From positions 192,001 to 256,000 of the forward strand of contig JAIPGM010000003.1 in assembly GCA_021735655.1 (NCBI GenBank): DNA of 64,000 nucleotides. Direction: 5' to 3'. Source of the DNA: Candidatus Omnitrophota bacterium. GTDB taxonomy: Bacteria > Omnitrophota > Gorgyraeia > Duberdicusellales > 4484-171. Each line of letters begins with the position of its first letter. The stretch's first letter is position 1. Position numbers and translations under genes: made by a program. The notes under the pieces were generated by a model, which worked only from the letters and a program-made list of their open reading frames with translations, searched no databases and was not told the DNA's origin. Positions 8,070 through 64,000 of this stretch are shown here, in pieces.

Positions 8070-8073
8070 CTAT

Positions 8074-8249: not shown

Positions 8250-8323
8250 GCGGGGGTAGCTCAATCGGCTAGAGCGTCACGTTGCCAACGTGAAGGTTGA
8301 GGGTTCGATTCCCTTCCTCCGCT
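8250..8323 (+). tRNA. tRNA-Gly (anticodon GCC)
   Basis: Acceptor GCGGGGG/CCTCCGC, anticodon stem TCACG/CGTGA with loop TTGCCAA, T-loop TTCGATT. It is followed by a T7 run. Confidence 0.8.
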
Positions 8324-8347
8324 GTTTTTTTAGTTTAAAATTCAATA

Positions 8348-8818: not shown

Positions 8819-8845
8819 AGGAAAATCTTTTTAAAGTAAAAAAGT

Positions 8846-10108
8846 ATGAAAAAATTTATAAAAGTTATACGTTGGTTATACCCAGGCTTGCGGATAAAGC
8901 GGTGGGTAGGATTATTAGTTTTAAGTAGTTTTTTCGTGATTTTTTCTACGGTTCGTTTTATCTATGATGTTGATCCGGTTTTGCGAATATTCGATTTGGT
9001 TTTATTTGTATTTTCTTTCGCCGGTTTTATTGCTGGGGTAAAATCATTGATTGAGAGTTTTTTTGAAGCCATTTATCCTGGGAAGAATAAAGAACTGATT
9101 GATATAATTTACGAAAAACGATTTCTTTCCAAGGGACCAAAAATTGTAGCTATTGGTGGAGGAACTGGCTTGTCAACCATCCTTGAAGGCTTAAAGAAAT
9201 ACACCGCGAATATAACCGCAATCGTTACTGTGGCTGATGAAGGAGGGTCTTCGGGGCGATTGCGTGAAGAATTTGGAATATTGCCACCGGGTGATATACG
9301 TAACTGCCTTGTTTCCTTGGCTGAGGTTCCTCAGATGATGCGTGATTTGTTTCAATATCGTTTTGAGGAAGGAGATGGTATCAAAGGCCATAGCTTTGGT
9401 AATCTTTTCATCACGGCTATGACTCAGGTGACCGGAAGTTTTAAGGATGCTGTAGAAGAATCAAGCATTGTTTTAGCCATCCGGGGAAGGGTTTTGCCTT
9501 CGAGCCTTGATCGGATTCGTCTTAAGGCTGAATACGGTGATGGGACAACTAAAGAGGGAGAAGATAAGATTCCTGACGAGGGAAGATCAATAAAGAACAT
9601 TTGTCTTATTCCTGATGACCCTAAGCCAAATCCCGAAGCAATTGAAGCAATCCGCGAGGCTGAAATAATAGTTTTTGGTCCGGGAAGTCTATTCACTAGC
9701 GTTATTCCAAATCTTTTGATTGGTCAGATTAAAGATGAGATTTCGAAGCGCGATGTTATGAAGTTGTATATTTGTAATGTTATGACTCAAAATGGCGAAA
9801 CTGATGGTTTTACAGCTTTTGATCATTTCAATACAATTGTTTCACACACTAAGAAAAATGTGATTAATAGCTGTTTGGTGAATTCGGGACGTCTTGAACA
9901 TCGTCTTTTAGTTAAATATGCTCAGGAGAAGTCTTTTCCGGTTATCTTTGATCGTGAGCGTTTTAAAAAGAAAGGCGTGGGAATATTTGAGGCCAATGTT
10001 GTTAGTAGAAGCAATTATTTAAGGCATGATTCAGAAAGAGTGTCTAAGGAAATTATAAATATTTATAACTATCGGAAGCGACGATGGAAAGTTTGGAAAA
10101 GAAAATAA
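8846..10108 (+). CDS. YvcK/CofD-family gluconeogenesis-factor-like protein with an atypical ~95-aa N-terminal extension carrying two predicted TM helices
   Basis: The core IVAIGGGTGLSTILEGLK...GPGSLFTSVIPNLL matches YvcK/UPF0052. The N-terminus has two hydrophobic helices (GLLVLSSFFVIFSTV; LVLFVFSFAGFIAGV). Confidence 0.7.
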   Translation: MKKFIKVIRWLYPGLRIKRWVGLLVLSSFFVIFSTVRFIYDVDPVLRIFDLVLFVFSFAGFIAGVKSLIESFFEAIYPGKNKELIDIIYEKRFLSKGPKIVAIGGGTGLSTILEGLKKYTANITAIVTVADEGGSSGRLREEFGILPPGDIRNCLVSLAEVPQMMRDLFQYRFEEGDGIKGHSFGNLFITAMTQVTGSFKDAVEESSIVLAIRGRVLPSSLDRIRLKAEYGDGTTKEGEDKIPDEGRSIKNICLIPDDPKPNPEAIEAIREAEIIVFGPGSLFTSVIPNLLIGQIKDEISKRDVMKLYICNVMTQNGETDGFTAFDHFNTIVSHTKKNVINSCLVNSGRLEHRLLVKYAQEKSFPVIFDRERFKKKGVGIFEANVVSRSNYLRHDSERVSKEIINIYNYRKRRWKVWKRK

Positions 10109-10350
10109 TAGTAAATAAAGAGCATGGTTTACATGCACGGCCAGCAACTATTTTTGTCCAGTTAGCCAATAAGTTTAATTCTTCCGTTAAGGTTGTCAAG
10201 GATGGCGAAGCGGTAGACGGTAAGTCAATAATCGCTATTTTAAGTTTAGGGGTAAGCAAGGGGGCAGAAGTGGCTTTAGTTGTTGAGGGTGGTGATTCCC
10301 AAGAGGCTATGGACGAACTCAAAAAATTTTTAGAGGCTGAAAATGATTAA
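10084..10350 (+). CDS. ptsH: phosphocarrier protein HPr
   Basis: HGLHARPA active-site His15 motif, 88 aa. It overlaps the start of ptsI. Confidence 0.9.
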   Translation: MESLEKKIIVNKEHGLHARPATIFVQLANKFNSSVKVVKDGEAVDGKSIIAILSLGVSKGAEVALVVEGGDSQEAMDELKKFLEAEND

Positions 10351-12100
10351 ATTAAAAGGCATTGCTGTTAGTGGCGGAGTTGGGATCGGAACAGTTCTAA
10401 CCTTGAGAAAGGATGAGCTTTCGATTCCTAGGAGAAAAATTGCTCATGATGAGATTTCTCGCGAGATCTATCGTTTGGAAGAGGCTTTGATTGAAACTCG
10501 TCGGCAAATTTCGGACCTTCAAAAGAAGATTTCTCAAGACATTGGCTTTGATCACGGAAGGATATTCGAAGCTCATTTTTTGGTTCTTGAAGACAGGATG
10601 CTTATCGAAGATATTATTAAACAAATTAAAAATAATAAAGTTAACGTAGAGTACGCGTTTTCTCAAAGTGTAAAGAAGTATGTTGATACGCTTTTACATT
10701 TGAACGATGAATACTTAAGAGAAAGAGTTGTCGATATCGAAGATATTGCCCGCAGAGTTTTACGGACAATGTTGAAGGAAAAGGCAACTACTTTAAGTAA
10801 TTTAAAAGAAAAGGTAGTTGTTGTTGCTCATGATCTTGGCCCTTCTCAAACTGCGTCTTTGCCAAAAGAAAATGTTCTTGGGTTTGTTACTGATATCGGA
10901 GGTAGGACATCACATACTGCGATTATTGCTCGTACCTTAAGAATTCCGGCAGTCGTTGGTCTCGAAACAGCTACTGATAATATTAAGTCTGGAGATAAAA
11001 TTATAGTTGATGGGTCAACTGGCGAAGTTATAGTCAACCCGACTGATAAGGTTCTTAAAGAATATGAAAAAAAGTCAACCCTTTATGATAAAGAAATTAA
11101 AGCTATCCATATTCCCAAGGCTTTAAAGGCAACAACCAAGGATGGTAAAGAAGTTATTATTTCAGCTAATATTGAGTTACCTGAAGAATTATCTTTAGTT
11201 AAACAATACGGAGCAGAGGGTATTGGTCTTTATCGGACAGAGTATATTTTTCTGGGCCGGAGGGATTTACCTTCCGAGGAAGAGCAATATGAGGCTTATC
11301 GGTTAGTAGCTAAAAAGGTTAAGCCAAATACAGTAGTTTTTAGGACTATTGATATTGGTGGGGATAAGTTTCTTTCTCGACCAGAAGTTCCCCATGAGAT
11401 GAGTCCTTTTTTAGGTTGGCGGGCAATTAGGTTTTGTTTAGCCCGACCAGAAGTGTTTAAAGCTCAGCTACGGGCAATTTTGAGAGCTTCGGTTGAGAAA
11501 AACGTAAATGTAATGTTTCCGATGATTTCGGGGGTAGAGGAACTCAGGGCGGCCAAAGCTATTCTTAATGAGTGTAAAGGTGAACTACGTAAAGAAAACA
11601 AACATTTTGATGAAAAATTGGCAGTTGGCACGATGATTGAAGTTCCTTCGGCAGCTTTAACGGCTGATGCCTTAGCTAAAGAGAGTGATTTTTTTAGTAT
11701 TGGAACTAATGATTTGATTCAATATTCTTTAGCCGTTGATCGGGGAAACGAAAAGGTTGCTTATCTTTATGAACCGGGGCACCCGGCAGTATTGAAACTT
11801 ATAAAACAGGTTATCGATGCGGCTCATAAAAATAAGATTTGGGCAGGCATGTGCGGGGAAATGAGTGGTGAGCCTATTTTTTCATTTTTACTTTTAGGTT
11901 TAGGGCTTGATAAGTTTAGTATGTCTCCGCCTCAGATTCCTAAAATAAAAGAGTTAATCTCTAACGTTAAATTTTCTGACGCTCAAAAGATTGCCGTCAA
12001 GGCTTTAAATATTTTAACCGCCAAGGAAGTTGAAAAGTATTTTCAGGGCGAGCTAAAGAAGATTTTAAAAGATAAATTTAACCATATTTTAATGGTTTAA
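10343..12100 (+). CDS. ptsI: phosphoenolpyruvate-protein phosphotransferase (PTS Enzyme I)
   Basis: GGRTSHTAIIARTLRIPAVVG phospho-His motif and the C-terminal PEP-utilising TIM-barrel motifs. Confidence 0.9.
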   Translation: MIKLKGIAVSGGVGIGTVLTLRKDELSIPRRKIAHDEISREIYRLEEALIETRRQISDLQKKISQDIGFDHGRIFEAHFLVLEDRMLIEDIIKQIKNNKVNVEYAFSQSVKKYVDTLLHLNDEYLRERVVDIEDIARRVLRTMLKEKATTLSNLKEKVVVVAHDLGPSQTASLPKENVLGFVTDIGGRTSHTAIIARTLRIPAVVGLETATDNIKSGDKIIVDGSTGEVIVNPTDKVLKEYEKKSTLYDKEIKAIHIPKALKATTKDGKEVIISANIELPEELSLVKQYGAEGIGLYRTEYIFLGRRDLPSEEEQYEAYRLVAKKVKPNTVVFRTIDIGGDKFLSRPEVPHEMSPFLGWRAIRFCLARPEVFKAQLRAILRASVEKNVNVMFPMISGVEELRAAKAILNECKGELRKENKHFDEKLAVGTMIEVPSAALTADALAKESDFFSIGTNDLIQYSLAVDRGNEKVAYLYEPGHPAVLKLIKQVIDAAHKNKIWAGMCGEMSGEPIFSFLLLGLGLDKFSMSPPQIPKIKELISNVKFSDAQKIAVKALNILTAKEVEKYFQGELKKILKDKFNHILMV

Positions 12101-31738: not shown

Positions 31739-32926
31739 ATGTTTAGTTCAATTGAAGATATTTTAGCTGATATTTTAGTCGGAAAGCCAGTAATCGTAGT
31801 CGACGATGAGGCTCGAGAAAATGAGGGGGATTTAGTAGTTGCTGCTGAATTCGCTACTCCTGAGGCGATTAATTTTATGATTAAGGAGGCTCGGGGTTTA
31901 GTTTGCGTTCCGATGGAGCGTTCGCGAATCGAAGCTCTTGATTTAGAGCCAATGCATCATAAGCCTTCCCGAGATCCTTTCAAAACAGCTTGGCGAGTTT
32001 CAGTAGATGCTGCTACTGGAGTTACTACTGGTATTTCAGCCTTTGATCGTTCAAGGACTATTTCAGTTTTAATTAACCCTGAAAGTAAACCAAGCGATTT
32101 TACAAAACCAGGCCATCTATTTCCTCTAGAGGCTAAAGACGGTGGAGTACTGACAAGAACTGGGCATACTGAAGCTGCTGTAGATTTAGCTAAGTTGGCA
32201 GGGGTTTACCCGGCTGGAGTAATTTGTGAAATAATAAAGGAAGATGGTTCAATGGCTAGGCTTCCGGGTTTGATAAAGTTTGCCAAAAAGCACGGGTTAA
32301 AGATATGTACCATTGCTTCGTTAATTAAGTATCGCAGCAAGAAAGAAAAACTAGTAAAGTTAGTTACGGAAGTCAATTTGCCTACCGATTACGGACAGTT
32401 TAAACTTTTTCTTTACGAATCTTTACTTGATGGATCTGAGCACTTAGCTTTAGTTAAAGGAACGATAAGTGAAAAATCGGTTTTAGTACGTGTGCATTCA
32501 GAGTGTCTTACTGGAGATATTCTTACTTCGCACCGTTGTGATTGTGGTAATCAACTTCATCAGTCGATGAAAATGATTGCTGATTGCGGTGGGGTCCTTC
32601 TTTATATGCGTCAGGAAGGAAGAGGAATTGGTTTAAAAGCTAAGATGAAAGCTTACCATTTACAGGAGAAAGGCCTTGATACTGTCGAGGCAAATCAGAG
32701 CTTAGGCTTTGCTTCCGATCTTAGAGATTATGGAATCGGAGCCCAGATTTTGGTAGAATTAGGGGTTAGGAAAATAAAACTTTTAACTAATAATCCTAAG
32801 AAAATAATCGGTCTCCAGGGGTATGGTTTAGAAATTACTGAGCGGGTGCCGATAAAAAGTGTCGCACATCCAGAAAGTGAACGTTATCTTAAAACTAAGA
32901 AGAATAAATTGGACCATATATTGTAA
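31739..32926 (+). CDS. ribBA: bifunctional 3,4-dihydroxy-2-butanone-4-phosphate synthase / GTP cyclohydrolase II
   Basis: DHBP synthase N-domain ([12 protein letters not shown]) and GTP cyclohydrolase II C-domain with the Cys zinc motif ([15 protein letters not shown]). Confidence 0.9.
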
Positions 32927-53264: not shown

Positions 53265-54708
53265 AAAATTAATATTTCAAAAAAATAGCGAGTTAAAATC
53301 AAGTGGTTATGTTGGGAAACCGAGTGTTTCCTTAATTGATCCTAGGGATGTTTTTCCTGATCAGTTTTTGCGTAGCGAGTTGCCCCTGCCTCAATTAGGT
53401 GAGCTTGAAGTAATTCGGCACTATAGTCAGTTAGCCGAGCTTAACTTTTCAGTCGATACCCATTTTTATCCTCTTGGTTCTTGTACTATGAAATATAATC
53501 CGAAGCTTAATGAGTCTTTGGCCAACCTAGAGGCTTTTAAAGGAATCCATCCTTATCAGGATCCAGAATCGGTGCAAGGGGCTCTTGAGCTTATCTATAA
53601 TTTGAATATGCTTTTATCTGAAATAACCGGAATGAAACAATTCACCTTTCAGCCCTCAAGCGGTGCTCAAGGTGAGCTTACTGGCTTGTTGATGATTCGT
53701 AAGTTTCATCAAGTTTCTGGAAATAGGAAGACTAAAGTTATTATTCCTGATTCAGCCCATGGCACAAACCCAGCCTCAGCTAGTATGTGCGGCTATGAGA
53801 CAGTGATAATTGAAAGTACTGAGGGAGGATTAATCGATATTGAAAAACTAAGAGCAGCGGTAGATCAGGATACAGCAGCGATAATGCTCACTAATCCTAA
53901 TACTTTGGGTTTGTTTGAAGAACAGATTCTGGAAGTGGCAGCAATAGTTCATCAGGCTGGAGGTTTGCTTTATTATGACGGAGCAAATTTTAACCCGCTT
54001 TTAGGCATTACTAACCCGGCGAAAATGGGTTTTGATGTTATTCATCTTAATTTGCATAAAACCTTTTCTACTCCCCATGGCTGCGGTGGTCCCGGAGCTG
54101 GTGTGGTTGGAGTTGCTAGCAAGTTAGTTGATTTTCTTCCTACACCAGTCGTAGCTAAAAAAGATGACGTTTATTATTTTGACTACTCGCTGGAAAATTC
54201 AATTGGCCGTTTACGTACCTTCTATGGTAATTTTGGCGTTTTAGTTAGAGCCTATAGTTATATTTTACGTTTAGGAAGGGAGGGCTTGTTGCGAGTCGCT
54301 CAAAATTCAGTAATTAATGCAAACTATATAAAGGAGAAGTTAAAGAATCATTATCATTTGGCTTACAATAAACCTTGTATGCATGAGGTAGTTTTTTCAG
54401 CTAAGCTTCAGAAAGAAAAAGGTGCCTCAGCTTTAGATATCGCTAAAAGACTTATTGACTACGGTATCCATCCGCCGACGATATATTTCCCTTTGATTGT
54501 TAAGGAGGCCTTGATGATTGAGCCTACTGAAACTGAGAGTAAAAAGACTCTCGATAAATTTATCCGGGTGATGATTAGCATCGATCGAGAGATAGCTGAG
54601 GAATTATACAAGGTTAAGAATGCTCCTTGTGAGGCACCGATTAAAAGGGCTGATGAGGTTCAGGCAGCACGCTTTCCGGAGGTAAGATGGAAAAAAGATG
54701 GCGCTTAA
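53257..54708 (+). CDS. gcvPB: glycine dehydrogenase (decarboxylating) subunit 2
   Basis: PLP-lysine region HLNLHKTFSTPHGCGGPGAG. Confidence 0.9.
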   Translation: MDRKLIFQKNSELKSSGYVGKPSVSLIDPRDVFPDQFLRSELPLPQLGELEVIRHYSQLAELNFSVDTHFYPLGSCTMKYNPKLNESLANLEAFKGIHPYQDPESVQGALELIYNLNMLLSEITGMKQFTFQPSSGAQGELTGLLMIRKFHQVSGNRKTKVIIPDSAHGTNPASASMCGYETVIIESTEGGLIDIEKLRAAVDQDTAAIMLTNPNTLGLFEEQILEVAAIVHQAGGLLYYDGANFNPLLGITNPAKMGFDVIHLNLHKTFSTPHGCGGPGAGVVGVASKLVDFLPTPVVAKKDDVYYFDYSLENSIGRLRTFYGNFGVLVRAYSYILRLGREGLLRVAQNSVINANYIKEKLKNHYHLAYNKPCMHEVVFSAKLQKEKGASALDIAKRLIDYGIHPPTIYFPLIVKEALMIEPTETESKKTLDKFIRVMISIDREIAEELYKVKNAPCEAPIKRADEVQAARFPEVRWKKDGA

Positions 54709-55454
54709 TCGTCGATAAGAAAAAAGACGGTTATTATAATATGGCTGTTGATGAGGCAATACTGCTTAACTATCAAACTCAGCGGGTTCCGACTTTGCGG
54801 ATTTATGGCTGGAGTGAGCCATTTATTACTTTAGGTTACAGCCAAGAACCTAACGAGGTGTTAGAATTAACCAATAAGTTACCTTTTTTAAAGAGAGTTA
54901 CTGGAGGTTCAGCTATTCTGCATGATCGTGAGCTTACTTATAGTATTACCTGCGTGTTGGAGGATTTAAGTTTGACTAGCTCGGTCAAAGAGTCCTATAA
55001 AACTATTTGTAGTTTTTTGATAAATTTCTACCAAAGTTTAGGAATTTCCGTTAAGTATGCTAAAGATACTGAAGAGACAAGCCTAGATGAGCAGACTCCT
55101 TTTTGTTTTTCCAGTTGGCAGAAATTAGATTTGGTTGCGGCTGATAAGAAAATCGGTGGTAATGCCCAAAGGCGTAAGCGAAACTTAATTTTTCAGCATG
55201 GTAGTATTCCTCAAGAATTGGATTTTTCGATAATTGATAAGGCGATTAAAACTCCTTTTGATGTTAGAAAGAGGGCAACTTCTTTGGAACAGTTGCTTGG
55301 CCATCATACCGACTTTTCTTCTTTGAGCCAATTATTAGCTAAAAGCTTCGAAAATACATTTGGGCTTGAACTTTACCGGGATGTGATTTCACCATCAGAA
55401 GAGCTGACAGTTAGTGATATCCTAAAAAAGAAACAGCAGATTCATCTTTTTTGA
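54687..55454 (+). CDS. octanoyl/lipoyl transferase of the BPL/LplA/LipB family (LipM/LplA-N-like). It probably lipoylates GcvH.
   Basis: KRVTGGSAILHDRELTYS and GGNAQRRKRN match LplA-family catalytic motifs. It lies immediately after gcvPB. Confidence 0.7.
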   Translation: MEKRWRLIVDKKKDGYYNMAVDEAILLNYQTQRVPTLRIYGWSEPFITLGYSQEPNEVLELTNKLPFLKRVTGGSAILHDRELTYSITCVLEDLSLTSSVKESYKTICSFLINFYQSLGISVKYAKDTEETSLDEQTPFCFSSWQKLDLVAADKKIGGNAQRRKRNLIFQHGSIPQELDFSIIDKAIKTPFDVRKRATSLEQLLGHHTDFSSLSQLLAKSFENTFGLELYRDVISPSEELTVSDILKKKQQIHLF

Positions 55455-55556: not shown

Positions 55557-55973
55557 ATGGGGAGGCGTTGTAAGAACAAAAATAAATCATTTTCGCTCGT
55601 TGAAATTATCACGGTGATAATCATATTGGGGATTTTAGCGGCAATTGCTTCTCCCTCATATCACAGGATGATTGAGAGAAGCAGGGGCAAACACGCTGAG
55701 TTTAATCTCATGGCTGTTTATAATGCTCAGAAACGACATCGCTTGGCTCAGAAGACCTACTATCAGTGTGTTAGTGCTCCTTGTGGTTCTCAAGAATTAG
55801 AAGATCACTTGGGAGTGTATATAAATGACCCTTATTTTAATTATGGAATAGTAGCTAACACGACTACTTTTACGGCAACAGCTACTAGGATAAATAGTAA
55901 TTTGTGTCTTGGCGCGACTATGAATGTGAGTGACAGTGGAAGTGAACCTATAAAAGGATGTGATCTTTGGTGA
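55557..55973 (+). CDS. minor pilin / pseudopilin (GspH/FimT-like), Ser at -1
   Basis: MGRRCKNKNKS|FSLVEIITVIIILGILAAIASP is a class III signal with Glu+5. Length is 138 aa. Its stop overlaps the next start (GTGA). Confidence 0.75.
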   Translation: MGRRCKNKNKSFSLVEIITVIIILGILAAIASPSYHRMIERSRGKHAEFNLMAVYNAQKRHRLAQKTYYQCVSAPCGSQELEDHLGVYINDPYFNYGIVANTTTFTATATRINSNLCLGATMNVSDSGSEPIKGCDLW

Positions 55974-57538
55974 AAAATAGATTGAATAAAAAGGCTCGAG
56001 GTAACCGGCGTATTTTTGGGGCTTTCGGAGTCTTGATTTTGGCGGCTCTTTTTCTTAGCTCAAGCTATTTCTTTGAATATTCATTTGCTCAAACACACCC
56101 TTTTCTAAAATATTTCCCAGCCAATGAAGAAATAATTACTTATTCTACCGATGGATTTAGCGGTTATCCTTTAGCTTTAACTGAAATAACAAACTGTACT
56201 CCGCCCAGTTTTGGCGGAGTAGATTTATTTAAGGCTCTAGCTGATTGTAATGCTTGTATGGGTTGGAAGGAGGGCTGCGCTGATTGTTGTATTAATCCAA
56301 CAACTCCGCCAGAGTACTTTTGTGCTCCCAGTGCAACGGATCCTGGGCCTAGTGGTGGATATAATCCAGTGCCTTTTAGTGAAAATTGCGACGGCTCAAC
56401 TCGAGTTTCCTGTACTACCTGTGGTCCTACCTTTTGTGGTCTTGATCCTGTGTTTGATAATTGTACTGGCTTTAATCCCTTGAATGTTGTTAGTGGCGAT
56501 ATTCCTAATTGTCAGCAGGCAGGATGTCCGATTTCAGATGATTATAGCTCTGTTGGTTGCGTTAGTGTTGGTTCCCCTCCTGAAACATATTGCATTGGAG
56601 ATAAAACTCCTCTTGATAAAGGTTGTGTTCCTGTAACTGAAGCCCAAGCAGTAGCAAGCTTGGGGTATAATCCGTTATTCCATACTTCAAGCACTGGGAG
56701 TGATTTTTATACAGTTACTACTCATCCAGCTGGGACTTTTAACGATACTGATGACGTTACAGTTGCCTTTGATAATGAAGGCATAACTTTTGATCCAGAC
56801 AATGATCCCTGCTTTCAGTATGGTCCAGGAGCCTTTTTAAATTATATTAATTCTTGTTCTGTTTATGCTGATGCTGCAGAGGTTGGATTTAAGGATAATC
56901 ACTGTTGTCAGTCTGGAGTATGTAGTGGTGCGGGCATGGGCGAGTGCGATACTAGCGGTGGCAATACAGCTACTATAGCCGATGACGGTGGTTGTACGAG
57001 CATAATGAATAATTGGGATAATCTTATACCTGTTTCTGCAGGGGTTAGTAAAAATTGCCATGCAGTTCAAGCTTTTGAATGTGTTGCTTTGCAAGAATTA
57101 GTAAATAACTGCATACAGAGTAATAACCAGTCTGAATGTAGTGCTTGTTTTGTTGAAATTGATTCAGATTTTCGCTATGAATTTGTGCCAAAAAGCGGAG
57201 AGTCTTTAGTTCTTGTTTGGCTTATTGAGGCGGTACCTGATATGCCAGCGGGCATGAACCCTAATTTTAATACCTATTTTTATAGCATGGTTAGGGTATT
57301 TGAACAGGGTGGAAGCGAACTCGGTCTTCCTACGAATATTGTACATCAGAAAAATTTTACTTCCGCCTTTAGTGTTTTTGGCGCAACATCAATAGATTCA
57401 TCATGGCTTACACCGGGTAAAAAATACGAAATAAGGGTATCTTATTTTATACCTAACGACTCTAATATTCCTCTTGGCGAACACTTAACGATGACCGTAA
57501 ACCGCATGGAACTGGATGTTTTCAGAGTGCGGGAGTAG
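55967..57538 (+). CDS. cysteine-rich secreted or membrane-anchored protein with no recognisable homology; a putative pilus-associated adhesin. The start is a TTG at 55967 or a GTG at 55970.
   Basis: N-terminal signal-anchor KKARGNRRIFGAFGVLILAALFL. About 30 Cys occur in residues 75-390, for example ADCNACMGWKEGCADCC and HCCQSGVCSGAGMGEC. The C-terminal ~130 aa are Cys-free and beta-rich. Lysine is almost absent, unlike the rest of the window. Confidence 0.6.
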   Translation: MVKNRLNKKARGNRRIFGAFGVLILAALFLSSSYFFEYSFAQTHPFLKYFPANEEIITYSTDGFSGYPLALTEITNCTPPSFGGVDLFKALADCNACMGWKEGCADCCINPTTPPEYFCAPSATDPGPSGGYNPVPFSENCDGSTRVSCTTCGPTFCGLDPVFDNCTGFNPLNVVSGDIPNCQQAGCPISDDYSSVGCVSVGSPPETYCIGDKTPLDKGCVPVTEAQAVASLGYNPLFHTSSTGSDFYTVTTHPAGTFNDTDDVTVAFDNEGITFDPDNDPCFQYGPGAFLNYINSCSVYADAAEVGFKDNHCCQSGVCSGAGMGECDTSGGNTATIADDGGCTSIMNNWDNLIPVSAGVSKNCHAVQAFECVALQELVNNCIQSNNQSECSACFVEIDSDFRYEFVPKSGESLVLVWLIEAVPDMPAGMNPNFNTYFYSMVRVFEQGGSELGLPTNIVHQKNFTSAFSVFGATSIDSSWLTPGKKYEIRVSYFIPNDSNIPLGEHLTMTVNRMELDVFRVRE

Positions 57539-57621
57539 GGATTATATAGACGCCATTGAGGGAAGAGATTAGTATAGATTAAGTATTAGGAAAAAGAAAG
57601 ATGAGTACAAGGAGGTACAAA

Positions 57622-58461
57622 ATGAAAAAGATAGCAATTTTGGCTATAGTTTCTATGTTGGTTCTGCCTCTGTTGGGTTTTGCTCAAGAAGGCCAGAATA
57701 TTGCAGTAGCACCTTTGGTGATTTCTGATGAAGGAAGCGGGACATTTACCTTAATTGAAACCCGTTGGCCTGACTTTTACAAGTACGTTCCAGCTGGGGG
57801 TTGTAGTGGATTGAGTAATTACAGTAAGAAGCGAAAGATTGAAGGAACTCCAACTTCACTTTATCCAATTTGTGGCAGTATGTTCTGCTATGTTACTGAC
57901 GCTATCGATCCATCAACCGGCACTCTTCACAGCTATCCGAATGCCGGGGCTCCAGCAGGTTATAACGTAGTTTATGAATATGCACCTAGTAATGCTGAGT
58001 ATGTTCCAATTTCTGACTTAGGAGCAACAGTTAACTTCGATGGCGACTGGGCTGAGTATCGTGATGTGGCTAGAATTTTGGTTACCTGGACAATTAGGCT
58101 TGAAGGTTATAAGAATATTATCCAGCCTAACCGAAAACATGATCCTTGGTTTAGTGGTGGTTGTGGTGGAACTACCTATCAATCTTTTCCCGAAGGTGAT
58201 GTTTATACGAAGTTGTTCGTTAATGGCTCACCTATAGGTAATCCGGCCATAATGACTATACCTTATGGCGGAAAGGGTTCAGCCTCAGGCGTAGTTGATC
58301 CAACCCATACCGGAAGCGTTGCGCTTACACCGGACATGTTCGGAGGATCTTTCCCAGCAACTTTGAATCTTGCAATTAAGGCTTACAATGACACTTGCAT
58401 GTCAGTTCAAAGTCCTAATGGCATGAGGAATTTAGTTGTTACAGTAACACCGATTAACTAG
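57622..58461 (+). CDS. secreted protein of unknown function (Sec signal peptide). The start is the ATG at 57622 behind an AAGGAGG; the track ORF starts at 57601.
   Basis: Signal MKKIAILAIVSMLVLPLLGFA|QEG and six Cys (CSG, ICGSMFC, GGCGG, DTC). No family recognised. Confidence 0.6.
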   Translation: MKKIAILAIVSMLVLPLLGFAQEGQNIAVAPLVISDEGSGTFTLIETRWPDFYKYVPAGGCSGLSNYSKKRKIEGTPTSLYPICGSMFCYVTDAIDPSTGTLHSYPNAGAPAGYNVVYEYAPSNAEYVPISDLGATVNFDGDWAEYRDVARILVTWTIRLEGYKNIIQPNRKHDPWFSGGCGGTTYQSFPEGDVYTKLFVNGSPIGNPAIMTIPYGGKGSASGVVDPTHTGSVALTPDMFGGSFPATLNLAIKAYNDTCMSVQSPNGMRNLVVTVTPIN

Positions 58462-58475
58462 AATTAAAGAAGACA

Positions 58476-58518
58476 AGACATAGAGGGCTAATTCCGGCCC
58501 TCTATGTCTATTTATTAT
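58476..58518 (+). terminator. rho-independent terminator after the secreted-protein gene
   Basis: A 13-bp perfect stem, AGACATAGAGGGC / GCCCTCTATGTCT, with an 8-nt loop and followed by ATTTATTAT. Confidence 0.55.
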
Positions 58519-58596
58519 AGGTAAAGTTTATCTTTCTTATTGGCCTTTCTGGCGTTATAATATTTATAGTTCGTTAAAATAAAAGTTGTTTTATAA

Positions 58597-59493
58597 ATGA
58601 AACATAAGGGATTAACCCTCATTGAGATAGTAGTTTCGGTAGTTTTAATCGGTATAGCTTTAATTGCTTTGGGAACAGCTTTAGTTACCGGAAAACACTT
58701 CATAAAAAGAGCTGAAAATGACGGCCGCGCTTTAAGCATAGCCTTGTCGCACAAAGAAGAACTTCTTAGTCGTTCTTATGACCATGCTGATTTATGTCCG
58801 GGTCTTTTTGGTTCCTCTTGTACGCAGAGTAATCCGGTTGGGTCGCCGGTAGATGGTTTTTTTAATTGGACCACGGTAGTAACTAATCGACGGGCTTGCA
58901 ACACCGGTAGCACTCGTTGTATTCCCTATAAAGAAATTATTGCTCAAGTTAATTATCCTGAAGAGGCAATCTCTGGCGCTAACAGTGGCATAACTAAAAG
59001 AGTTACCGTAAAGGATATAATTCCTTTTCCTAAGGTGCATCTTAGTGAGGCTAATACTGGGGTAGTTACCTGTGATGCTGCTGCTGGATGTGAAGTCCTT
59101 TTTGGCATTGGTAATGAAACAGTAGTTGGATCCGGTGGCGATTCCTTATCAATAGATCTTCCGGCTTACCCAGTAGAAAAAGATCTTTTAGTTATTTACA
59201 ATATTGCAATTAATATCGAATTAAACGGAGCAGGCATTCAAAATGCCGATAATATAGTAACTAGGTCCAGGATTATAAATAACGATAGCGGTGCTGTAAC
59301 CTGGAGTTCAATGGTGACAGTTACCCCGATTATGTCTCAGGCAGTAATTAATAGTGTTTCAAGAATTTCTATTCCTGCTGCCGGTGTTAATGATCCCCAT
59401 ACGATTGAGGTACGTTGGTATAAGCAACAAAATAGAGGTCAAATATCTGTTAAGCGATCTAGTTTGACAGTGCTTGCTTTTGAAAGGGATTAA
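58597..59493 (+). CDS. large pseudopilin-like protein (prepilin-type N-terminus, 298 aa; GspK/PilW/PilX-like size)
   Basis: MKHKG|LTLIEIVVSVVLIGIALIALGTAL with Gly-1 and Glu+5, and six Cys in the globular part. Confidence 0.7.
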   Translation: MKHKGLTLIEIVVSVVLIGIALIALGTALVTGKHFIKRAENDGRALSIALSHKEELLSRSYDHADLCPGLFGSSCTQSNPVGSPVDGFFNWTTVVTNRRACNTGSTRCIPYKEIIAQVNYPEEAISGANSGITKRVTVKDIIPFPKVHLSEANTGVVTCDAAAGCEVLFGIGNETVVGSGGDSLSIDLPAYPVEKDLLVIYNIAINIELNGAGIQNADNIVTRSRIINNDSGAVTWSSMVTVTPIMSQAVINSVSRISIPAAGVNDPHTIEVRWYKQQNRGQISVKRSSLTVLAFERD

Positions 59494-59498
59494 AAGCT

Positions 59499-60071
59499 AT
59501 GAATAGCAAAGGCTTTACTTTAATTGAGATGATTGTAGTTTTACTTGTTATTAGTTTTATAATGATTACCATTACTTCTATAGCAATTTTTTTTACCCGC
59601 CAAGTTAATTTAAGTAGGGAAAGAACGAATATGTGGAGTCAGCTAGAATATACCGTTAGTGATATGCGTACTCGTTGCGTTAGCGCTGTCACCACTATTA
59701 CCCCGCTTAGCCCTTGCGGAAGTATCACTATTAATGGTACTAGTGGTAGTAACTTTACCTTTAACGGTGAGGCAGATATATATAGTATTACTCCTGATAA
59801 TATTACTGATAATGTAAATTATACCTATAGCATACAGAATGACGGAGCCTTGATTTTACAGACTACTGGAGGCGTTACTGATGTTTTAATTGATGGAAAA
59901 TATAACCCCGAGCTAATCTTTGAACACCATTGCGAAGTCGTTGGCGGGGTGACTATTCCTGATGAGCCACATTTTATTAGGGTTAACCTTACACTTGAAA
60001 ACGTTAGCTTCGGTCTTAATGCTTCTCGGGAAGACGCAATACGTTTTTGGTTTTTGGATGTAGTACAATGA
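59499..60071 (+). CDS. minor pilin / pseudopilin (PilV/GspI-J-like)
   Basis: MNSKG|FTLIEMIVVLLVISFIMITI with a canonical Gly-1, Phe+1 and Glu+5. Length is 190 aa. Confidence 0.75.
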   Translation: MNSKGFTLIEMIVVLLVISFIMITITSIAIFFTRQVNLSRERTNMWSQLEYTVSDMRTRCVSAVTTITPLSPCGSITINGTSGSNFTFNGEADIYSITPDNITDNVNYTYSIQNDGALILQTTGGVTDVLIDGKYNPELIFEHHCEVVGGVTIPDEPHFIRVNLTLENVSFGLNASREDAIRFWFLDVVQ

Positions 60072-60460
60072 TAGCAATTGTAATTTCAATCACAGTTTCT
60101 CTTTCTATTCTCTTGAGTGCTTTTGTATCTTTTAGCCCGAGCTTTAAAGCTATAGTTGAAGGAGAGATTAAACGTAAAGCTCAAGAAAGCGCTTGGGTTT
60201 ATGCTTCGAAAAGCGGTCAACTTATTGAACGGGCTAATTCTGATGGTAACCCTCCGGATAACTTTACCTGTGTTACTGCGGCTAGTGCCTGGAATTGCAT
60301 GGGAACTGTTCCGATGCGAGAGGAAGAGTCAGGCGGCGTTTGGACTGACACTGAACATGTATGTATAGAAGTCAGTCGGTCGGCACCTGCTTTTCCGGAT
60401 TTACCTAAAATTACAGTAGAAAATGTTACTTCTAGTAGCCAAACTTGCCCCCATCACTAA
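60068..60460 (+). CDS. small membrane-anchored protein with a pilin-like hydrophobic N-terminus but no canonical cleavage motif (PilX-like?). The ATG at 60068 overlaps the preceding stop as ATGA.
   Basis: MIAIVISITVSLSILLSAFVSF N-terminal helix, Cys-containing C-terminus (FTCVTAASAWNCMG; HVCIEV; QTCPHH), and translational coupling. Confidence 0.5.
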   Translation: MIAIVISITVSLSILLSAFVSFSPSFKAIVEGEIKRKAQESAWVYASKSGQLIERANSDGNPPDNFTCVTAASAWNCMGTVPMREEESGGVWTDTEHVCIEVSRSAPAFPDLPKITVENVTSSSQTCPHH

Positions 60461-61341
60461 AGATAATGGTTTCAGGACAAACTTCAAGCCTATCTTGTTC
60501 TAAGCCGGCTTGGCTTAAAAAAAATATAAATTTGAGTTTGAATCATAAGCTAAAGACAAGGCTACGTAATCTTTCTTTAAATACGGTTTGTGAGGAATCT
60601 CGTTGTCCTAATATTTCTGAGTGTTTTTCTAAGCAGGTTGCAACTTTTTTAATTTTAGGTGATGTTTGTACTCGAGGTTGTAGTTTTTGCCTTATTGGTA
60701 AAGGTAAACCAGGCCAACTTGATTTTAATGAACCGCAGAGGATAGCGCAGGCAGCTAAACTTTTGAATTTAAATTATCTAGTTATTACTTCTCCTACTCG
60801 CGATGATCTTCTTGACGGAGGGGCAGCAATTTTTGTAGAAACCGTAAGAGAGATTCTAGCTTTAGATCCTAAAAAAAGAGTTGAGCTCTTGATACCTGAT
60901 TTTTTGGGGAAAAAAGACTCTATTGAAAAGGTAGTCGAATCAGGAGCAGAAACTATAGCTCACAATCTAGAAACTGTTCCTAAGTTATATAAGAAGGTAA
61001 GGAAAGGTGCCAGTTATCGGCGTTCCTTATTTGTTCTGGAGACTACAAAGAAGTTGAACCAGCGAATTTTTACTAAGACGGGTTTAATGTTCGGCTTGGG
61101 CGAAAAGGAAAAGGAGGTTAAGAGGGTCTTGGCTGATTTAAATTCTATAGGTTGTGATTTTTTAACTCTCGGTCAATATTTACCTCCTTCGCGAAATAAT
61201 TACCCTTTAAAAAGTTATGTTCATCCTGATACTTTTGATTATTTTAAAAATTATGCTTTAAAATTAGGTTTTAAGAATGTTATTAGTGGTCCCTACGTTC
61301 GTTCTTCATATATGGCTCATTTAATGAGTTCCGGCCTTTAA
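60445..61341 (+). CDS. lipA: lipoyl synthase
   Basis: N-terminal KPAWLKK, auxiliary cluster Cys (CEESRCPNISEC) and radical-SAM CTRGCSFC. Confidence 0.88.
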   Translation: MPPSLKIMVSGQTSSLSCSKPAWLKKNINLSLNHKLKTRLRNLSLNTVCEESRCPNISECFSKQVATFLILGDVCTRGCSFCLIGKGKPGQLDFNEPQRIAQAAKLLNLNYLVITSPTRDDLLDGGAAIFVETVREILALDPKKRVELLIPDFLGKKDSIEKVVESGAETIAHNLETVPKLYKKVRKGASYRRSLFVLETTKKLNQRIFTKTGLMFGLGEKEKEVKRVLADLNSIGCDFLTLGQYLPPSRNNYPLKSYVHPDTFDYFKNYALKLGFKNVISGPYVRSSYMAHLMSSGL

Positions 61342-61576
61342 TAGTATATATACTAAATACTTTCCTAAGTATTTACTTATCAATCAGAAAGACAGGGTAT
61401 TTTTTAGGATAAGTGAGCTTATTTCCTGATAATTTTAGAAGGGGGCTTTGTACACAATATCTAGTGGCATAGTCAAAAGCATACAATATATTGAAAATAG
61501 CGTTAAATCGTAGGAAATTATGCTTGACAGAGGTAAACAAAGATAATTTAATAGAGATATAACCATTTTATAACAA

Positions 61577-61762
61577 ATGATAAAGAGAAAGGCAGTTCCT
61601 CGGTTGATGAGTGTTGATGAGTTGGCAGATTATTTAGGTCTGCAGAAGCAGACTATTTATAATTGGCTACACTTAAAGAAGATTACCGGAATAAAAATCG
61701 GTAAAGTTTGGCGTTTTGATCGTAAGTATATTGATCAGTGGCTGAAAAAGTGTAGTGAGTGA
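61577..61762 (+). CDS. small helix-turn-helix DNA-binding protein (excisionase/AlpA-like HTH_17 family)
   Basis: LMSVDELADYLGLQKQTIYNWL...KIGKVWRF is the MerR-superfamily excisionase-type HTH. Length is 61 aa. Confidence 0.6.
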   Translation: MIKRKAVPRLMSVDELADYLGLQKQTIYNWLHLKKITGIKIGKVWRFDRKYIDQWLKKCSE

Positions 61763-61768
61763 TAAGTT

Positions 61769-63256
61769 ATGGCTAAAACAGTAGGATTATATTTGGGTGT
61801 AGATACTTTAGGGGTAGCAGTAGTCAGCGGCCGCAATCTCGTTAATTTTAATCAGTTTAACCTTTCTGTTGCCGAAGAGTCTAAACAGGGAGTGGTAAAT
61901 GAGGATGTCCGCTTAGAAGCTTCAATTAATAAAGCACTCAGAGAAGCGGGTGTTGTTAGTGAGAGCATATACCTTTCTTTAGCTGATCGAGATTTTATTT
62001 TTCGTTCTCTTGAAATGCCACTCATGCGTAAGGGCGAGATTGAGTCATCTTTGGTTTATGAAGTTGAGAAGTATATACCTTTTAAGATGACTGAGTTGGA
62101 GTGGACCTACGCCAGCGTGCGTTCAGCCAAAGAGAAAAAGATGAATATATCTTTTGTCGGCATCCGGGACAAAAATCTAGGGCGGATTAGAGATATCTTG
62201 GGTCGTTTGGATCTTGGTATTATTTTTATTGAGCCATCTTCTTTATCTCTATTTAGGGCACTTAAGACCTTGAAGCGGTTCTCAAAAATAAAGGATTTTG
62301 CCCTTTTGGACATTACAAAGACCGAATCCCATCTTACTTTTTTCCAGGATGAACTTCCGGTATTCAACCGTTATCTTACTATTCCTAAGAAGGAAGACTC
62401 TTTTGACACCGGTAAATTTTCCGAATCAGTAGATTTTTCTTTTCAGTACTTTAAACGTGAATTTCGTTCTTATAAACTTGATAAGTTTATCTTGGTCAGT
62501 GACATTGAGAGTAAAGAGTTAGCTTCTAGCCTTGAAGAAGGGCTACAGGTTTCAGTTGAGGCTGTTTCTTCTTCTGATATAGCCAATCGTAATGATGCCA
62601 GCGTTGAAAGCATGAAGGCTTTCGGGGCAGCAGTTCAAGATCAATTCCCTTCAGTTTTTAAATCAAGCTTCAGGAAGACCCAGATTTCTAAAGAAGGAGA
62701 GATGATTGAGATTGGCGTTGATGCTCCCGACTTAAGGATAGGTTTAATCGGAGCTCTTTTAGGTATAGGTTTGGTAGCTGCTTTTTTTACTTCTATTATT
62801 ATGGGCAATGAGGTTGTTGAAAAGAAAGCTTATGTAAATAGGCAAAGAGAGGAAGTTGTTGTTCCTAAAGGGCTTGAAAACTTTTCTTGGGATCAGTATC
62901 CGGAGGTTGTTAAGGATCTAGAGAAAAAGACCAAAGAGTTAAAAGATTCTCAAGAGTCATTTAGTAATCTTGCTAATATTTTTGAAGCTTTAAGTAGCCG
63001 CAGGGTTTTACCGGAAGGGTTGTGGCTTGAGAATTTTAGAATTACTCGTCAGAAGGGAACTAGTAATGGAAAGGTAACCGGATATCTGTTTCGTGACGAC
63101 GATCAAGATGAGCGTTCGGGCTTAGATGATTTTGTTTCCAGGCTTAAGGCCGAGCCCTCATTACAACAAGCTTTTCCGACCATTGAAATTGATTTTTCTA
63201 AGCGACAAACTAAAAAGGAATTTGAAGTTACCTATTTTTCTATAACTTTAAAGTAA
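61769..63256 (+). CDS. pilM: type IV pilus assembly PilM-PilN fusion protein (GspL-like architecture)
   Basis: Residues 1-320 are a PilM/FtsA-like actin-fold ATPase (MAKTVGLYLGVDTLGVAVVSG). A TM helix follows (LIGALLGIGLVAAFFTSIIMG), then a ~150-aa periplasmic PilN-like domain. Confidence 0.7.
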   Translation: MAKTVGLYLGVDTLGVAVVSGRNLVNFNQFNLSVAEESKQGVVNEDVRLEASINKALREAGVVSESIYLSLADRDFIFRSLEMPLMRKGEIESSLVYEVEKYIPFKMTELEWTYASVRSAKEKKMNISFVGIRDKNLGRIRDILGRLDLGIIFIEPSSLSLFRALKTLKRFSKIKDFALLDITKTESHLTFFQDELPVFNRYLTIPKKEDSFDTGKFSESVDFSFQYFKREFRSYKLDKFILVSDIESKELASSLEEGLQVSVEAVSSSDIANRNDASVESMKAFGAAVQDQFPSVFKSSFRKTQISKEGEMIEIGVDAPDLRIGLIGALLGIGLVAAFFTSIIMGNEVVEKKAYVNRQREEVVVPKGLENFSWDQYPEVVKDLEKKTKELKDSQESFSNLANIFEALSSRRVLPEGLWLENFRITRQKGTSNGKVTGYLFRDDDQDERSGLDDFVSRLKAEPSLQQAFPTIEIDFSKRQTKKEFEVTYFSITLK

Positions 63257-63257
63257 A

Positions 63258-63737
63258 ATGAAAGAATTAGCGCGTTATAAAAATATTGTTGTTAGTTTGT
63301 TTATTGTACTTATCGTTGCAATATCGCTACGCAGTATTTACTCTAACTATTCTCTAAAGCTCAAAAAATTATCAGAAGAGGAAGTACAGATAAAAGAGGC
63401 TAAGGATATTATATTTGAATGGATAAACCTTAACAGTAAACTTGAACAGCTTAGAAGCCAGTTTTTGGAAAAAGACACAATTCTTTTTAAGAAGCTTGTT
63501 GAAGAAAAAGCAAGGCTGGCTAAGATTGATCTTCCTTCCTTGCGACTTTCGCGTATTGATAAAGATTCTTATTGGGAGGTTAGGGTAAGGCTTAACACCA
63601 CTTGTCCTTATAGTAATTTTGTAGAGTTTGTTGATTCCCTCGCTGATAAAAATATAGAGGTAGTTACCGCAAGCTTGAGTGGTGATAGAGAAAAAGTAGC
63701 GGTTGATGCTGAGATAAAGGGGGTTGTTCTTAAATGA
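63258..63737 (+). CDS. pilO: type IV pilus assembly protein PilO-like (bitopic)
   Basis: N-terminal TM IVVSLFIVLIVAISL, a coiled-coil and a ferredoxin-like periplasmic domain. Position follows pilMN. Confidence 0.55.
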   Translation: MKELARYKNIVVSLFIVLIVAISLRSIYSNYSLKLKKLSEEEVQIKEAKDIIFEWINLNSKLEQLRSQFLEKDTILFKKLVEEKARLAKIDLPSLRLSRIDKDSYWEVRVRLNTTCPYSNFVEFVDSLADKNIEVVTASLSGDREKVAVDAEIKGVVLK

Positions 63738-64000
63738 GGCTTATAAAAGTGGCTTTTCTTTTATTGTTTTTGCTTTTGCCGATACTGCTTTATTCAGCTG
63801 AAAGCTATCGAAATCCTTTTGAATCATTACTTCCTAAGGAAGAGGTTGCCGGAGAGGCAGGGGTTCAAGAAGTTGTCAAGCCTTTAACGATCGTTGTTCA
63901 GGGGGTTTTGTGGGGAAGCTTAATGCCACAGACGATTATCGACGGTGAGGTTTATAAAGTTGGTGATCAACTTAAGAGCCTTGAGAATGCTTCAGTACTT
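63734..64000 (+). CDS. pilP: PilP-like periplasmic pilus assembly protein, N-terminal fragment that runs off the window
   Basis: Signal peptide MRLIKVAFLLLFLLLPILLYSA and an IDGEVYKVGDQL beta-strand motif typical of PilP/GspC HR domains. ATGA overlap with pilO. Confidence 0.45.
   Translation, partial: MRLIKVAFLLLFLLLPILLYSAESYRNPFESLLPKEEVAGEAGVQEVVKPLTIVVQGVLWGSLMPQTIIDGEVYKVGDQLKSLENASVL

Follow-up and report, generated by a model that had tools for sequence, protein, structure and literature searches.

[quoted passage not shown] In the type IVa pilus (T4aP), which has the gene order M-N-O-P-Q, PilM is a separate soluble protein that carries ATP-binding motifs and clamps the N-terminal peptide of PilN, whose periplasmic ferredoxin-like domain (Pfam PF05137) follows a TM helix and a coiled coil. 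The MSHA secretory operon of Vibrio cholerae (mshI-J-K-L-M-N-E-G-F) encodes the GspL/PilN-like MshI, a PilO-like protein, a small protein, a secretin, an MshEN c-di-GMP ATPase and a platform protein in this order (PMC4624765). Among small DNA-binding proteins, BldC of Streptomyces, a pleiotropic regulator of ~60-70 aa that consists solely of a winged helix-turn-helix (HTH; MerR-like), forms cooperative multimers that are arranged head-to-tail on AATTxxxx(C) direct repeats (PMC5859096). Excisionases like Xis gp37 of mycobacteriophage Pukovnik and AlpA/TorI-type proteins are small basic members of the HTH_17 family.

Omnitrophota are mostly uncultured nanobacteria, which are believed to be dependents or predators of other cells. 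Secretion and pilus loci have been linked to this lifestyle in published work (bioRxiv 10.1101/2023.11.21.568195). The window analyzed here comprises 64,000 nucleotides of a Candidatus Omnitrophota genome, and all features described below are located on its plus strand. The lipA stop at 61341 is followed by a 235-nt leader, the gene of a 61-aa HTH protein (61577..61762) and, after a 6-nt gap, the gene of a 495-aa fusion protein (61769..63256). Next are a 159-aa ORF (63258..63737) and the 5′ part of a gene for a small signal-peptide protein (63734..64000; 89 of 112 codons), which is cut by the window end. The ORFs, the gap, the leader and a TTGACA at 61524 agree with the initial annotation of this DNA. 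The complete length of the last protein (112 aa) was obtained from the sister contig L001, which is identical to the window over the shared genes, including the fusion protein. Here, the secretin gene that the initial annotation had expected beyond the window end was found after the small gene (12354-13844 of L001), followed by genes for a PilB/GspE-type ATPase, a platform protein and pilins. The operon has a length of ~9 kb, with internal gaps of 50-115 nt.

The best joint explanation, to which we assign a probability of about 0.6, is that the region constitutes the promoter and the 5′ end of one long type IV filament machine operon, which would be intermediate between T4aP and T2SS, is conserved across Omnitrophota, and encodes a GspL-type fusion and a dedicated HTH protein that would bind at its own promoter and regulate it. 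The proposed operon would run from a promoter module over the winged HTH, the fusion, a PilO/GspM-like and a GspC-HR/PilP-like protein to the secretin, the ATPase, the platform protein and short pilins.

The 495-aa protein had been described as a single PilM-like/TM/PilN-like chain with GspL topology, and this was confirmed by its bitopic architecture, its folds and its homologues. The cytoplasmic, actin-like (PilM-type) domain (residues 1-292, 61769..62644) has an FtsA-like fold. It is followed by a single TM helix (residues 324-346, 62738..62806), whose hydrophobic stretch IGLIGALLGIGLVAAFFTSIIMG is the start of an extended helix in the two AF2 models, and by a periplasmic ferredoxin-like domain (residues 400-495, 62966..63253) with the order alpha-beta-beta-alpha-beta-beta, a fold shared with PilN and the periplasmic domain of GspL. 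In structure, the two halves come closest to PilM and PilN (T. thermophilus 2ych/4bhq; M. xanthus 3jc8). For the C-terminal half, a sequence-only PDB profile search gave no match and only the fold comparison worked. On the family level, PilM_2 reaches 27.4 bits (cut-off 27.0) for residues 44-201 only, and TIGR01175 reaches 42.9 bits (cut-off 133). The gathering score of Pfam T2SSL (PF05134), the GspL family, is not reached by the window fusion, for which no T2SSL match was obtained at E<=1; weak matches are found in 31 of 37 relatives (best E 1.8e-6).

The PilM/FtsA-like domain had also been called complete. The FtsA-like fold is present, but the domain is not fully complete: in an alignment with the true PilM of locus L078, the subdomain 2B insert (~33 aa) is absent, the phosphate-1 aspartate is replaced by tyrosine and the GGG adenosine motif by SD-I. 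The nucleotide-binding motifs are degenerate, and the domain appears to have lost its ATP-binding motifs. A cytoplasmic domain that is predicted to contain neither nucleotide-binding motifs nor subdomain 2B is a GspL-like feature. In contrast to the T4aP PilM, the fusion is neither a separate soluble protein nor equipped with ATP-binding motifs, and since the PilM and PilN parts are fused, the interaction of a PilN peptide with a PilM groove is not needed.

A frameshift at the PilM/PilN junction, which had been named as a possible objection, as well as chance are excluded by more than 120 homologues of 487-510 aa from independent assemblies and by 61 orthologous loci; in every relative, the PilM-like part is covalently joined to the TM helix and the PilN-like part. 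The fused PilM/PilN is a known design and not unique to Omnitrophota, as single chains of PilM_2 and PilN also occur in T2SSK-...-T2SSM_b-secretin clusters of Desulfobacterota and Elusimicrobia. Such proteins, which combine PilM and PilN signatures with GspL architecture in all three groups, are useful intermediates for tracing the origin of the T2SS GspL from the PilM and PilN of T4aP.

As had been annotated, a pilO-like and a pilP-like gene follow the fusion gene. The bitopic 159-aa protein is a PilO/GspM-like partner, whose orthologues match Pfam PilO (9/11) or T2SSM (2/11); the window copy alone has no Pfam match. The orthologues of the small protein with its GspC-HR/GspB/PilP-like beta domain match T2SSB (10/12) and T2SSC (8/12) with a best E of 5.8e-7, and not PilP. 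Since these two proteins are PilO/GspM-like and GspC/GspB-like, the machine is placed between T4aP and T2SS. Among the downstream proteins, the ATPase, which carries the MshEN c-di-GMP motif, has its highest score as PilB (600 bits, cut-off 676), the platform protein has it as GspF (341, cut-off 424), and the secretin is about equal as PilQ and GspD with PilQ marginally ahead (182 bits, cut-off 284). All three proteins miss every equivalog cut-off.

The initial annotation had described the gene order as that of a T4aP pilMNOPQ operon. The order itself is correct, but it does not establish a T4aP, because fused homologues outside the phylum are located in T2SS-type K-L-M-C-D clusters and because the genes of the MSHA operon are arranged likewise (PMC4624765). 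A genuine type IVa operon with an incidental fusion of pilM and pilN, whose retractile pili would serve adhesion, motility or DNA uptake and not secretion, is nevertheless the strongest competing explanation and a possible one, although we hold it to be less probable than the intermediate machine. The PilB-like ATPase with MshEN motif, the slight preference of the secretin for PilQ, the ComP_DUS matches of the pilins and the example of MSHA pili, which use the GspL-like MshI and share the gene order, are consistent with it. However, all equivalog cut-offs are missed, the platform protein and the small protein point to T2SS, as do the clusters of the fused relatives, a separate canonical unfused pilMNOPQ operon is carried by other Omnitrophota (L078), and neither pilT nor a second ATPase was found in the window or in L001. 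The MSHA operon itself differs by mshM and mshN, which have no equivalents here, and the secretin reaches 95 bits with MshL, far below its PilQ and GspD scores. No NCBIfam match of the MshI type was obtained for the fusion.

In the intermediate machine, the 495-aa protein would work like GspL or MshI. Its TM helix links the cytoplasmic actin-like domain covalently to the periplasmic ferredoxin-like domain. Judged by the protein families, the former would dock the assembly ATPase, the latter would pair with the PilO/GspM-like protein that is encoded by the adjacent gene, and a bridge to the secretin would be formed by the small GspC-HR-like protein.

The 61-aa protein is a winged HTH of the excisionase/BldC class. 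It matches HTH_17 (PF12728) with 53.9 bits (cut-off 27) and TIGR01764 'excise' with 54.6 bits (cut-off 28.8), is basic in character, and its closest solved structure by sequence is the Pukovnik Xis gp37 (4j2n, E 0.002); BldC was not recovered in this PDB profile search. In total, 420 homologues were found, of which the 120 listed are all at least 71% identical, and every source name given belongs to Omnitrophota. In a search of a representative library, 32 members were retrieved at E<=1e-10 and 3559 members at E<=1e-3, which shows the protein as belonging to a small subfamily of HTH_17, itself a very large family.

The proposed tie of the HTH to the pilus operon is borne out by the comparison of loci: in 58 of 59 testable species, the HTH gene immediately precedes the fusion gene, and one species (L022) has the operon without it. 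Of 59 extracted HTH genes, including that of L001, 53 overlap the fusion gene or are separated from it by at most 11 nt. An apparent gap of 300 nt in L008 is a run of N and has no biological meaning. Across the loci, the identity of the HTH is 68-88% vs. 30-66% for the fusion, with medians of 80% for the HTH, 77% for the ATPase and 42% for the fusion. The msh operon is not known to start with an HTH_17 gene.

With the excisionases, the HTH protein shares its domain family, its size and its basic character; the difference is that the HTH gene is chromosomal, vertically conserved across the phylum and tied to a filament machine operon, and that integrase, att sites and a mobile-element context are missing. 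As in the initial annotation, no integrase partner was detected, neither in the window flanks nor in L001, and the prophage-like surroundings that it had considered are absent, with lipA upstream and housekeeping genes around. A function as true excisionase (recombination directionality factor) was rejected for the lack of integrase and att sites and the lipA-HTH-fusion synteny fixed in 58/59 species. MAD1 of the MADS defence was rejected too, since NF047737 gives 65.7 bits at a cut-off of 80, PADLOC reports mad1 only and the neighbours are pilus and secretion genes. That the HTH is a stray mobile-element excisionase, and/or the 495-aa ORF an assembly or frameshift artefact, has accordingly a negligible probability: the 'excisionase family' name of TIGR01764 and the sub-cut-off MAD1 match are all that speaks for it, and the comparative data, i.e., the recurring gene pair in its housekeeping context and the full-length fusions of independent assemblies, refute it.

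Within the HTH gene, a terminator-like hairpin was observed at 61637-61654. It was rejected as a conserved terminator, as it results for the most part from the codons for LQKQT and is absent in 21/59 loci; no excess of compensatory changes was seen among the rows of loci tallied by hand.

The initial annotation had reported a weak TTGACA-based promoter at 61524. The hexamer is indeed a conserved -35 element; it is not an incidental weak match but the core of a strongly conserved 117-nt module in the leader. This module consists of two 11-nt boxes, three 10-bp-phased AAATTATA repeats and TTGACA-17-TTTAAT. Box 1 (ACAATATCTAG, 61454..61464) is the distal copy of the quasi-palindromic box, and Box 2 (ACAATATATTG, 61483..61493), the proximal copy, holds the perfect palindrome CAATATATTG. 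The direct repeats GAAAATAGCG, TTAAATCGTA and GGAAATTATG (61493..61522) abut the -35 element (61524..61529), and a -10-like hexamer TTTAAT (61547..61552) begins 17 nt after it. In the subsequent short 5′ leader (61553..61574), two further repeat-like units (AGAGATATAAC and CATTTTATAAC) are present and the consensus '..TatAA..aaaTTATAa..ATG' is conserved; no obvious Shine-Dalgarno sequence was found in this stretch.

Among 44 non-redundant leaders, the box pattern ACWAKATRTWG occurs at -70/-71 from TTGACA in 30 (Box 1) and at -41/-42 in 36 (Box 2), and the spacing between both boxes is 29 bp in 26/28 leaders. The repeat consensus across the phylum is xxAAATTATA (AATTATAAC), whereby repeats 1 and 2 are degenerate in the window's own clade; well-formed leaders are those of L024 and L010. 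PWM matches of the repeat are located at exactly -31 in 19/44, at -21 in 35/44 and at -11 in 24/44 leaders, where -21 is the training position of the PWM and 0.04 loci per position are expected from the background; 6/44 leaders have a further match at +39. The sequence cTTGACA is near-invariant (55/59 leaders), and TTtAAT is kept at the fixed spacing of 17 nt. A simple promoter scan did not report TTGACA-17-TTTAAT, because it requires the canonical A at position 2 of the -10 hexamer, which is missing here; the promoter call rests on conservation. Transcription from this promoter is predicted to start near 61559-61562 and to yield a single transcript that extends to the pilin genes. The module has a mean of 0.9 bit per column, with 44 of 117 columns at 1 bit or more, and a pairwise identity of 56% vs. 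28-36% for controls. An Rfam scan of 61200-61900 (leader and gene start) gave no match to RNA elements.

The module is largely restricted to the HTH leaders. A PWM and regex scan of ~1 Mb of related loci and the window found no paired boxes elsewhere, and 53 of the 64 tandem repeat units found are inside HTH leaders; of the other 11, two are located farther upstream of the HTH in L008 (displaced promoter). For a wider regulon, neither box nor repeat is enriched elsewhere in the 64-kb window.

As the cis-module is conserved alongside the HTH gene and lies at its own promoter, it is most simply the target of the HTH, for which dedicated autoregulation of this operon is the most likely role. The most probable binding sites are the direct repeats of the AATTATAAC type, which are phased at 10 bp and adjoin the -35 element, with a binding mode like that of Xis or BldC. 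The two palindromic boxes may be bound instead of the repeats or in addition to them, and transcription would be autoregulated in each case. Anatomy, folds, conservation and cis-module are observed here, and all binding steps as well as the sign of the regulation are inferred. The AATTATAAC unit fits the BldC pattern, and with at least three phased units in the leader a BldC-like binding is conceivable; the BldC repeats differ in their period of 9 bp instead of 10 bp, and BldC is not encoded by the first gene of a target operon. The AT-rich phased repeats could also be an UP-element or curved DNA instead of HTH sites, and a factor encoded elsewhere could be the one that recognizes the boxes.

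Other functions of the HTH are less probable. It is unlikely, though worth considering, that it is not a classical repressor-type autoregulator but acts at the promoter like the processive antiterminators of the AlpA type, or as an activator in contact with RNA polymerase, so that transcription would run through the ~9-kb operon. AlpA of P. aeruginosa works as a processive antiterminator, and the membership in the HTH_17/AlpA class, the conserved sites that reach from upstream right up to the -35 element, the imperfect -10 hexamer and the long operon with its internal gaps would suit such a role, but conserved intrinsic terminators were not found and the one hairpin in the HTH gene is not conserved beyond codon constraint. 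Quite improbable is a stoichiometric cytoplasmic machine partner that is not primarily a transcription factor, e.g., one that binds the PilM-like domain or the ATPase or handles DNA for a ComP-like uptake pilus, with other factors at the promoter elements. Its conservation at the level of the ATPase and far above other structural genes, the translational coupling to or overlap with the fusion gene and the ComP_DUS matches would fit, whereas the DNA-binding nature of the domain family, the dedicated cis-module and L022, which keeps the machine without the HTH, argue against it. Similarly speculative is an assembly-coupled switch, in which the HTH, made near-stoichiometrically through translational coupling with the GspL-type protein, would form a BldC-like head-to-tail oligomer on the phased repeats and be titrated by the cytoplasmic domain of the fusion or by the c-di-GMP-binding ATPase. 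If so, transcription of the filament machine would report its assembly state or host contact.

In the literature on 'PilMN fusion' and on Omnitrophota pili or T2SS, no description of the HTH-fusion gene pair was found. While the fusion design is already known, the new element is the unusually conserved 61-aa HTH with its own conserved promoter module. The operon, apparently a core trait of Omnitrophota, now has a defined control region and a candidate regulator, and this putative control system is small, consisting of a 61-aa protein and a DNA fragment of ~120 bp.

Furthermore, a minor-pilin cluster (55557..60460) with N_methyl and ComP_DUS matches is located between lplA and lipA. It contains a ComP_DUS-like pilin, two signal-peptide proteins, two prepilins and a small TM protein, and it is syntenic in L002, L004, L008, L012, L043, L057, L061 and L081-L083.

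The operon begins on the forward strand with a 61-aa HTH_17 protein (61577-61762), followed after a gap of 6 nt by a 495-aa PilM-PilN fusion (61769-63256), a 159-aa PilO/GspM-like protein (63258-63737) and a small protein that starts at 63734 and is cut by the window end. The upstream gene lipA ends at 61341, which leaves a leader of 235 nt containing a TTGACA at 61524-61529. This ORF layout was recovered exactly as in the initial annotation, whose overall reading of a PilM-PilN fusion with GspL-like topology behind an HTH gene was essentially right. The 495-aa protein matches, at 100% identity, a 'hypothetical protein' at NCBI from a Candidatus Omnitrophota MAG. It is also encoded identically on a Logan contig (L001) that covers the genes 3′ of the window. 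There, the small protein, 112 aa at full length, is followed by genes for a 496-aa secretin, a 569-aa MshEN + T2SSE ATPase, a 407-aa T2SSF platform protein and two short pilins, and then by housekeeping genes. The secretin presumed to lie beyond the window is thus present, and the objection that none follows falls away. No integrase or prophage was found on either flank in the window and L001. The same layout was found again in three independent metagenome contigs.

The synteny of the glycine-cleavage/lipoate block and the filament operon is kept across the phylum. lplA and lipA are adjacent and directly 5′ of the HTH gene in most other Omnitrophota; in the window, lplA (54687-55454) and lipA are split by a 4.9-kb minor-pilin cluster (55557-60460), which has the appearance of an insertion specific to this clade.

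A frameshift as the origin of the fusion, one of the doubts named at first, is ruled out: database searches returned more than 120 homologues of 487-510 aa with 38-69% identity, all those with a named source being Omnitrophota, and a scan with one genome per species yielded 61 orthologous loci. An AF2 model built on 37 relatives (pLDDT 84) comprises an actin-like domain (residues 1-290), a disordered linker, a TM helix (residues 324-346) running on as a long helix, and a C-terminal alpha-beta-beta-alpha-beta-beta domain. PilM_2 was matched by 37 of 37 family members, T2SSL weakly by 31 and PilN by 19; the window copy barely reaches the PilM_2 gathering score (27.4 vs. 27) and misses TIGR01175 (43 vs. 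a cut-off of 133). For a comparison of motifs, the protein was aligned with a genuine unfused PilM from a different Omnitrophota MAG (L078). Missing from the fused proteins are the phosphate-1 Asp (GLYLG vs. GIDLG), the GGG adenosine loop (SD-IE vs. SGGG) and about 33 residues of subdomain 2B. Due to these three missing features, the cytoplasmic domain is GspL-like in its losses, but PilM-like in sequence and overall fold. Judged by these motifs, ATP binding has probably been lost.

The fused design is not new. GspL counts as equivalent to PilM fused with PilN (PMC10191384, PMC4471445), and single chains of 459-475 aa that pass the Pfam cut-offs of PilM_2 as well as PilN were found among the more distant scan matches in Desulfobacterota (L068, L064) and Elusimicrobia (L079). 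Their genes are flanked by a T2SSK pseudopilin gene on one side and by T2SSM_b-like, GspC-like and secretin genes on the other, with ATPase, platform protein and pilins upstream, which is a T2SS-type layout. The fusion is a known, GspL/MshI-type kind of protein, whose PilM-flavoured version appears to be a core trait of the Omnitrophota. Two distinct types of filament machine occur in the phylum, since the L078 MAG carries a canonical unfused pilA-pilM-pilN-pilO-pilP-pilQ operon (7211-11991) whose PilM has intact ATP-binding motifs.

On its own, the 159-aa protein matches no family; its orthologues match Pfam PilO in 9 of 11 and T2SSM in 2 of 11 cases. The 112-aa protein combines a signal peptide with a small beta domain and contains the conserved motif DPFESLLP; its orthologues match T2SSB (10/12) and T2SSC (8/12), and none of the 12 matches PilP. 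PilP is structurally homologous to the HR domain of GspC (PMC4471445). All remaining components stay below the equivalog cut-offs: the ATPase scores best with PilB (600 bits; GspE 569), the secretin with PilQ (182 bits; GspD 171) and the platform protein with GspF (341 bits; PilC 292). The proposed order pilMN-pilO-pilP-like-secretin was confirmed but is by itself insufficient for assignment to T4aP, as the MSHA operon of Vibrio cholerae has the same order, with MshI (GspL/PilN-like), MshJ (PilO-like), a small protein, the secretin and later the c-di-GMP-binding ATPase MshE (PMC4624765). In its N-terminal part, the Omnitrophota ATPase (L001 13945-15654) also matches the model of the MshE-type motif for c-di-GMP binding (NF053729, 57 bits vs. 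a cut-off of 38), which suggests that the machine is controlled by a second messenger. On account of these mixed, sub-cut-off matches, the machine lies between T4aP, T2SS and MSHA as currently defined.

The most informative part of the finding is the HTH gene. By a tblastn synteny table of the orthologous loci, it immediately precedes the fusion gene in 58 of the 59 species that could be tested (in two further loci, the sequence starts within the fusion gene), and the two genes are mostly separated by 1-11 nt or overlap by 1-8 nt. Median identity to the window protein is 80% for HTH (range 68-88), 77% for the ATPase (65-91), 55% for the platform protein (29-76), 52% for the secretin (41-78), 42% for the fusion (30-66) and 32% for the PilO-like protein (23-50). 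The core LGLQKQTIYNWLHxKKISGIKIGKVWRFDRKYIDxWL is almost invariant. Among the best 120 of 420 homologues, all are at least 71% identical, and those with a named source are Omnitrophota proteins called 'excisionase family' or 'helix-turn-helix'. By sequence, the closest relative with a solved structure is a mycobacteriophage Xis (4j2n, E 0.002). A working excisionase is ruled out by the fixed chromosomal position across the phylum without an integrase. HTH is a basic protein made up solely of an HTH_17/TIGR01764 domain. A terminator-like hairpin inside the HTH CDS (61637-61654, GGTCTGC-AGAA-GCAGACT with a T-rich tail) was rejected as a conserved element: it results mostly from the LQKQT codons, is missing from 21 of 59 orthologues and shows no significant covariation.

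The 59 leaders were aligned on TTGACA, which supports the promoter proposed there and places it within a conserved cis-regulatory module. Its order is ACAATATATAG, 18 nt, tACAATATATAG, three xxAAATTATA units, cTTGACA, 17 nt, TTtAAT and a leader of about 25 nt with TATAAC...TTATAAC before the ATG. Over 117 columns, the module has a mean of 0.9 bit, 44 columns of at least 1 bit and a pairwise identity of 56%, compared to 28-36% for stretches of the same length upstream of ATPase, secretin or pilin genes. With a PWM derived from the middle repeat, matches fall exactly at -31 (19/44) and -11 (24/44) relative to TTGACA, with a background expectation of 0.04 loci per position. Copies of the 11-nt box are positioned at -70/-71 and -41/-42; in 26 of 28 leaders, they are 29 bp apart. 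The tandem repeats are almost confined to HTH leaders, and no paired boxes were found outside them, in about 1 Mb of related DNA and the 64-kb window. The window copy of the module has its boxes at 61454-61464 and 61483-61493; of its repeats, the third (GGAAATTATG) is well formed and the first two are degenerate. A lone copy with one mismatch (TACAATATATGG, 32914-32925, minus strand) is unpaired, far from the operon and consistent with chance (9 matches vs. 8.6 expected).

Based on a near-invariant wHTH and a co-conserved non-coding module restricted to its own promoter, HTH is most simply explained as a regulator with the module as its candidate operator. BldC, which consists of a wHTH alone, forms cooperative head-to-tail multimers on AATTxxxx(C) direct repeats (PMC5859096). 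With AATTATAAC, the Omnitrophota unit conforms to this consensus, a resemblance suggestive of BldC-like binding of the repeats by HTH; BldC was not recovered by sequence search with HTH. The repeats could also be an UP-element or phased A-tracts, and the boxes could be the real site of HTH or that of another factor. HTH may also act as an AlpA-like antiterminator or activator, or be a structural part of the machine. For the regulator hypothesis, the sole species truly without the HTH gene (L022) is a natural control; there, lipA is followed by 177 nt (7824-8000) and the fusion gene, and the promoter is altered to TTGACT-17-TCTAAT. No description of HTH at the operon start with a dedicated promoter module was found in the searchable literature, and this ultra-conserved operon-leading wHTH with its module is a modestly novel, directly testable addition.

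A 227-aa signal-peptide protein without family match is encoded after the pilins (L001 17978-18661), has 46-70% identity by tblastn in six loci, in some directly after the pilins (L002, L005), and may be an unrecognised outer-membrane or pilotin-like component. ComP_DUS, a domain of the Neisseria DNA-uptake-sequence receptor pilin, was matched by two short pilins, one in the window (55557-55973, above the Pfam cut-off) and one on L001 (17010-17405, a precomputed match), which hints that the filament may serve in DNA binding or uptake. The Omnitrophota operon also turns up on a contig (L011) of a MAG named 'Methanosarcinales archaeon' and on many contigs with the label 'uncultured Planctomycetia'. 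Such assignments are probably binning or taxonomy-label problems, and the archaeal bin could reflect co-abundance with a host.
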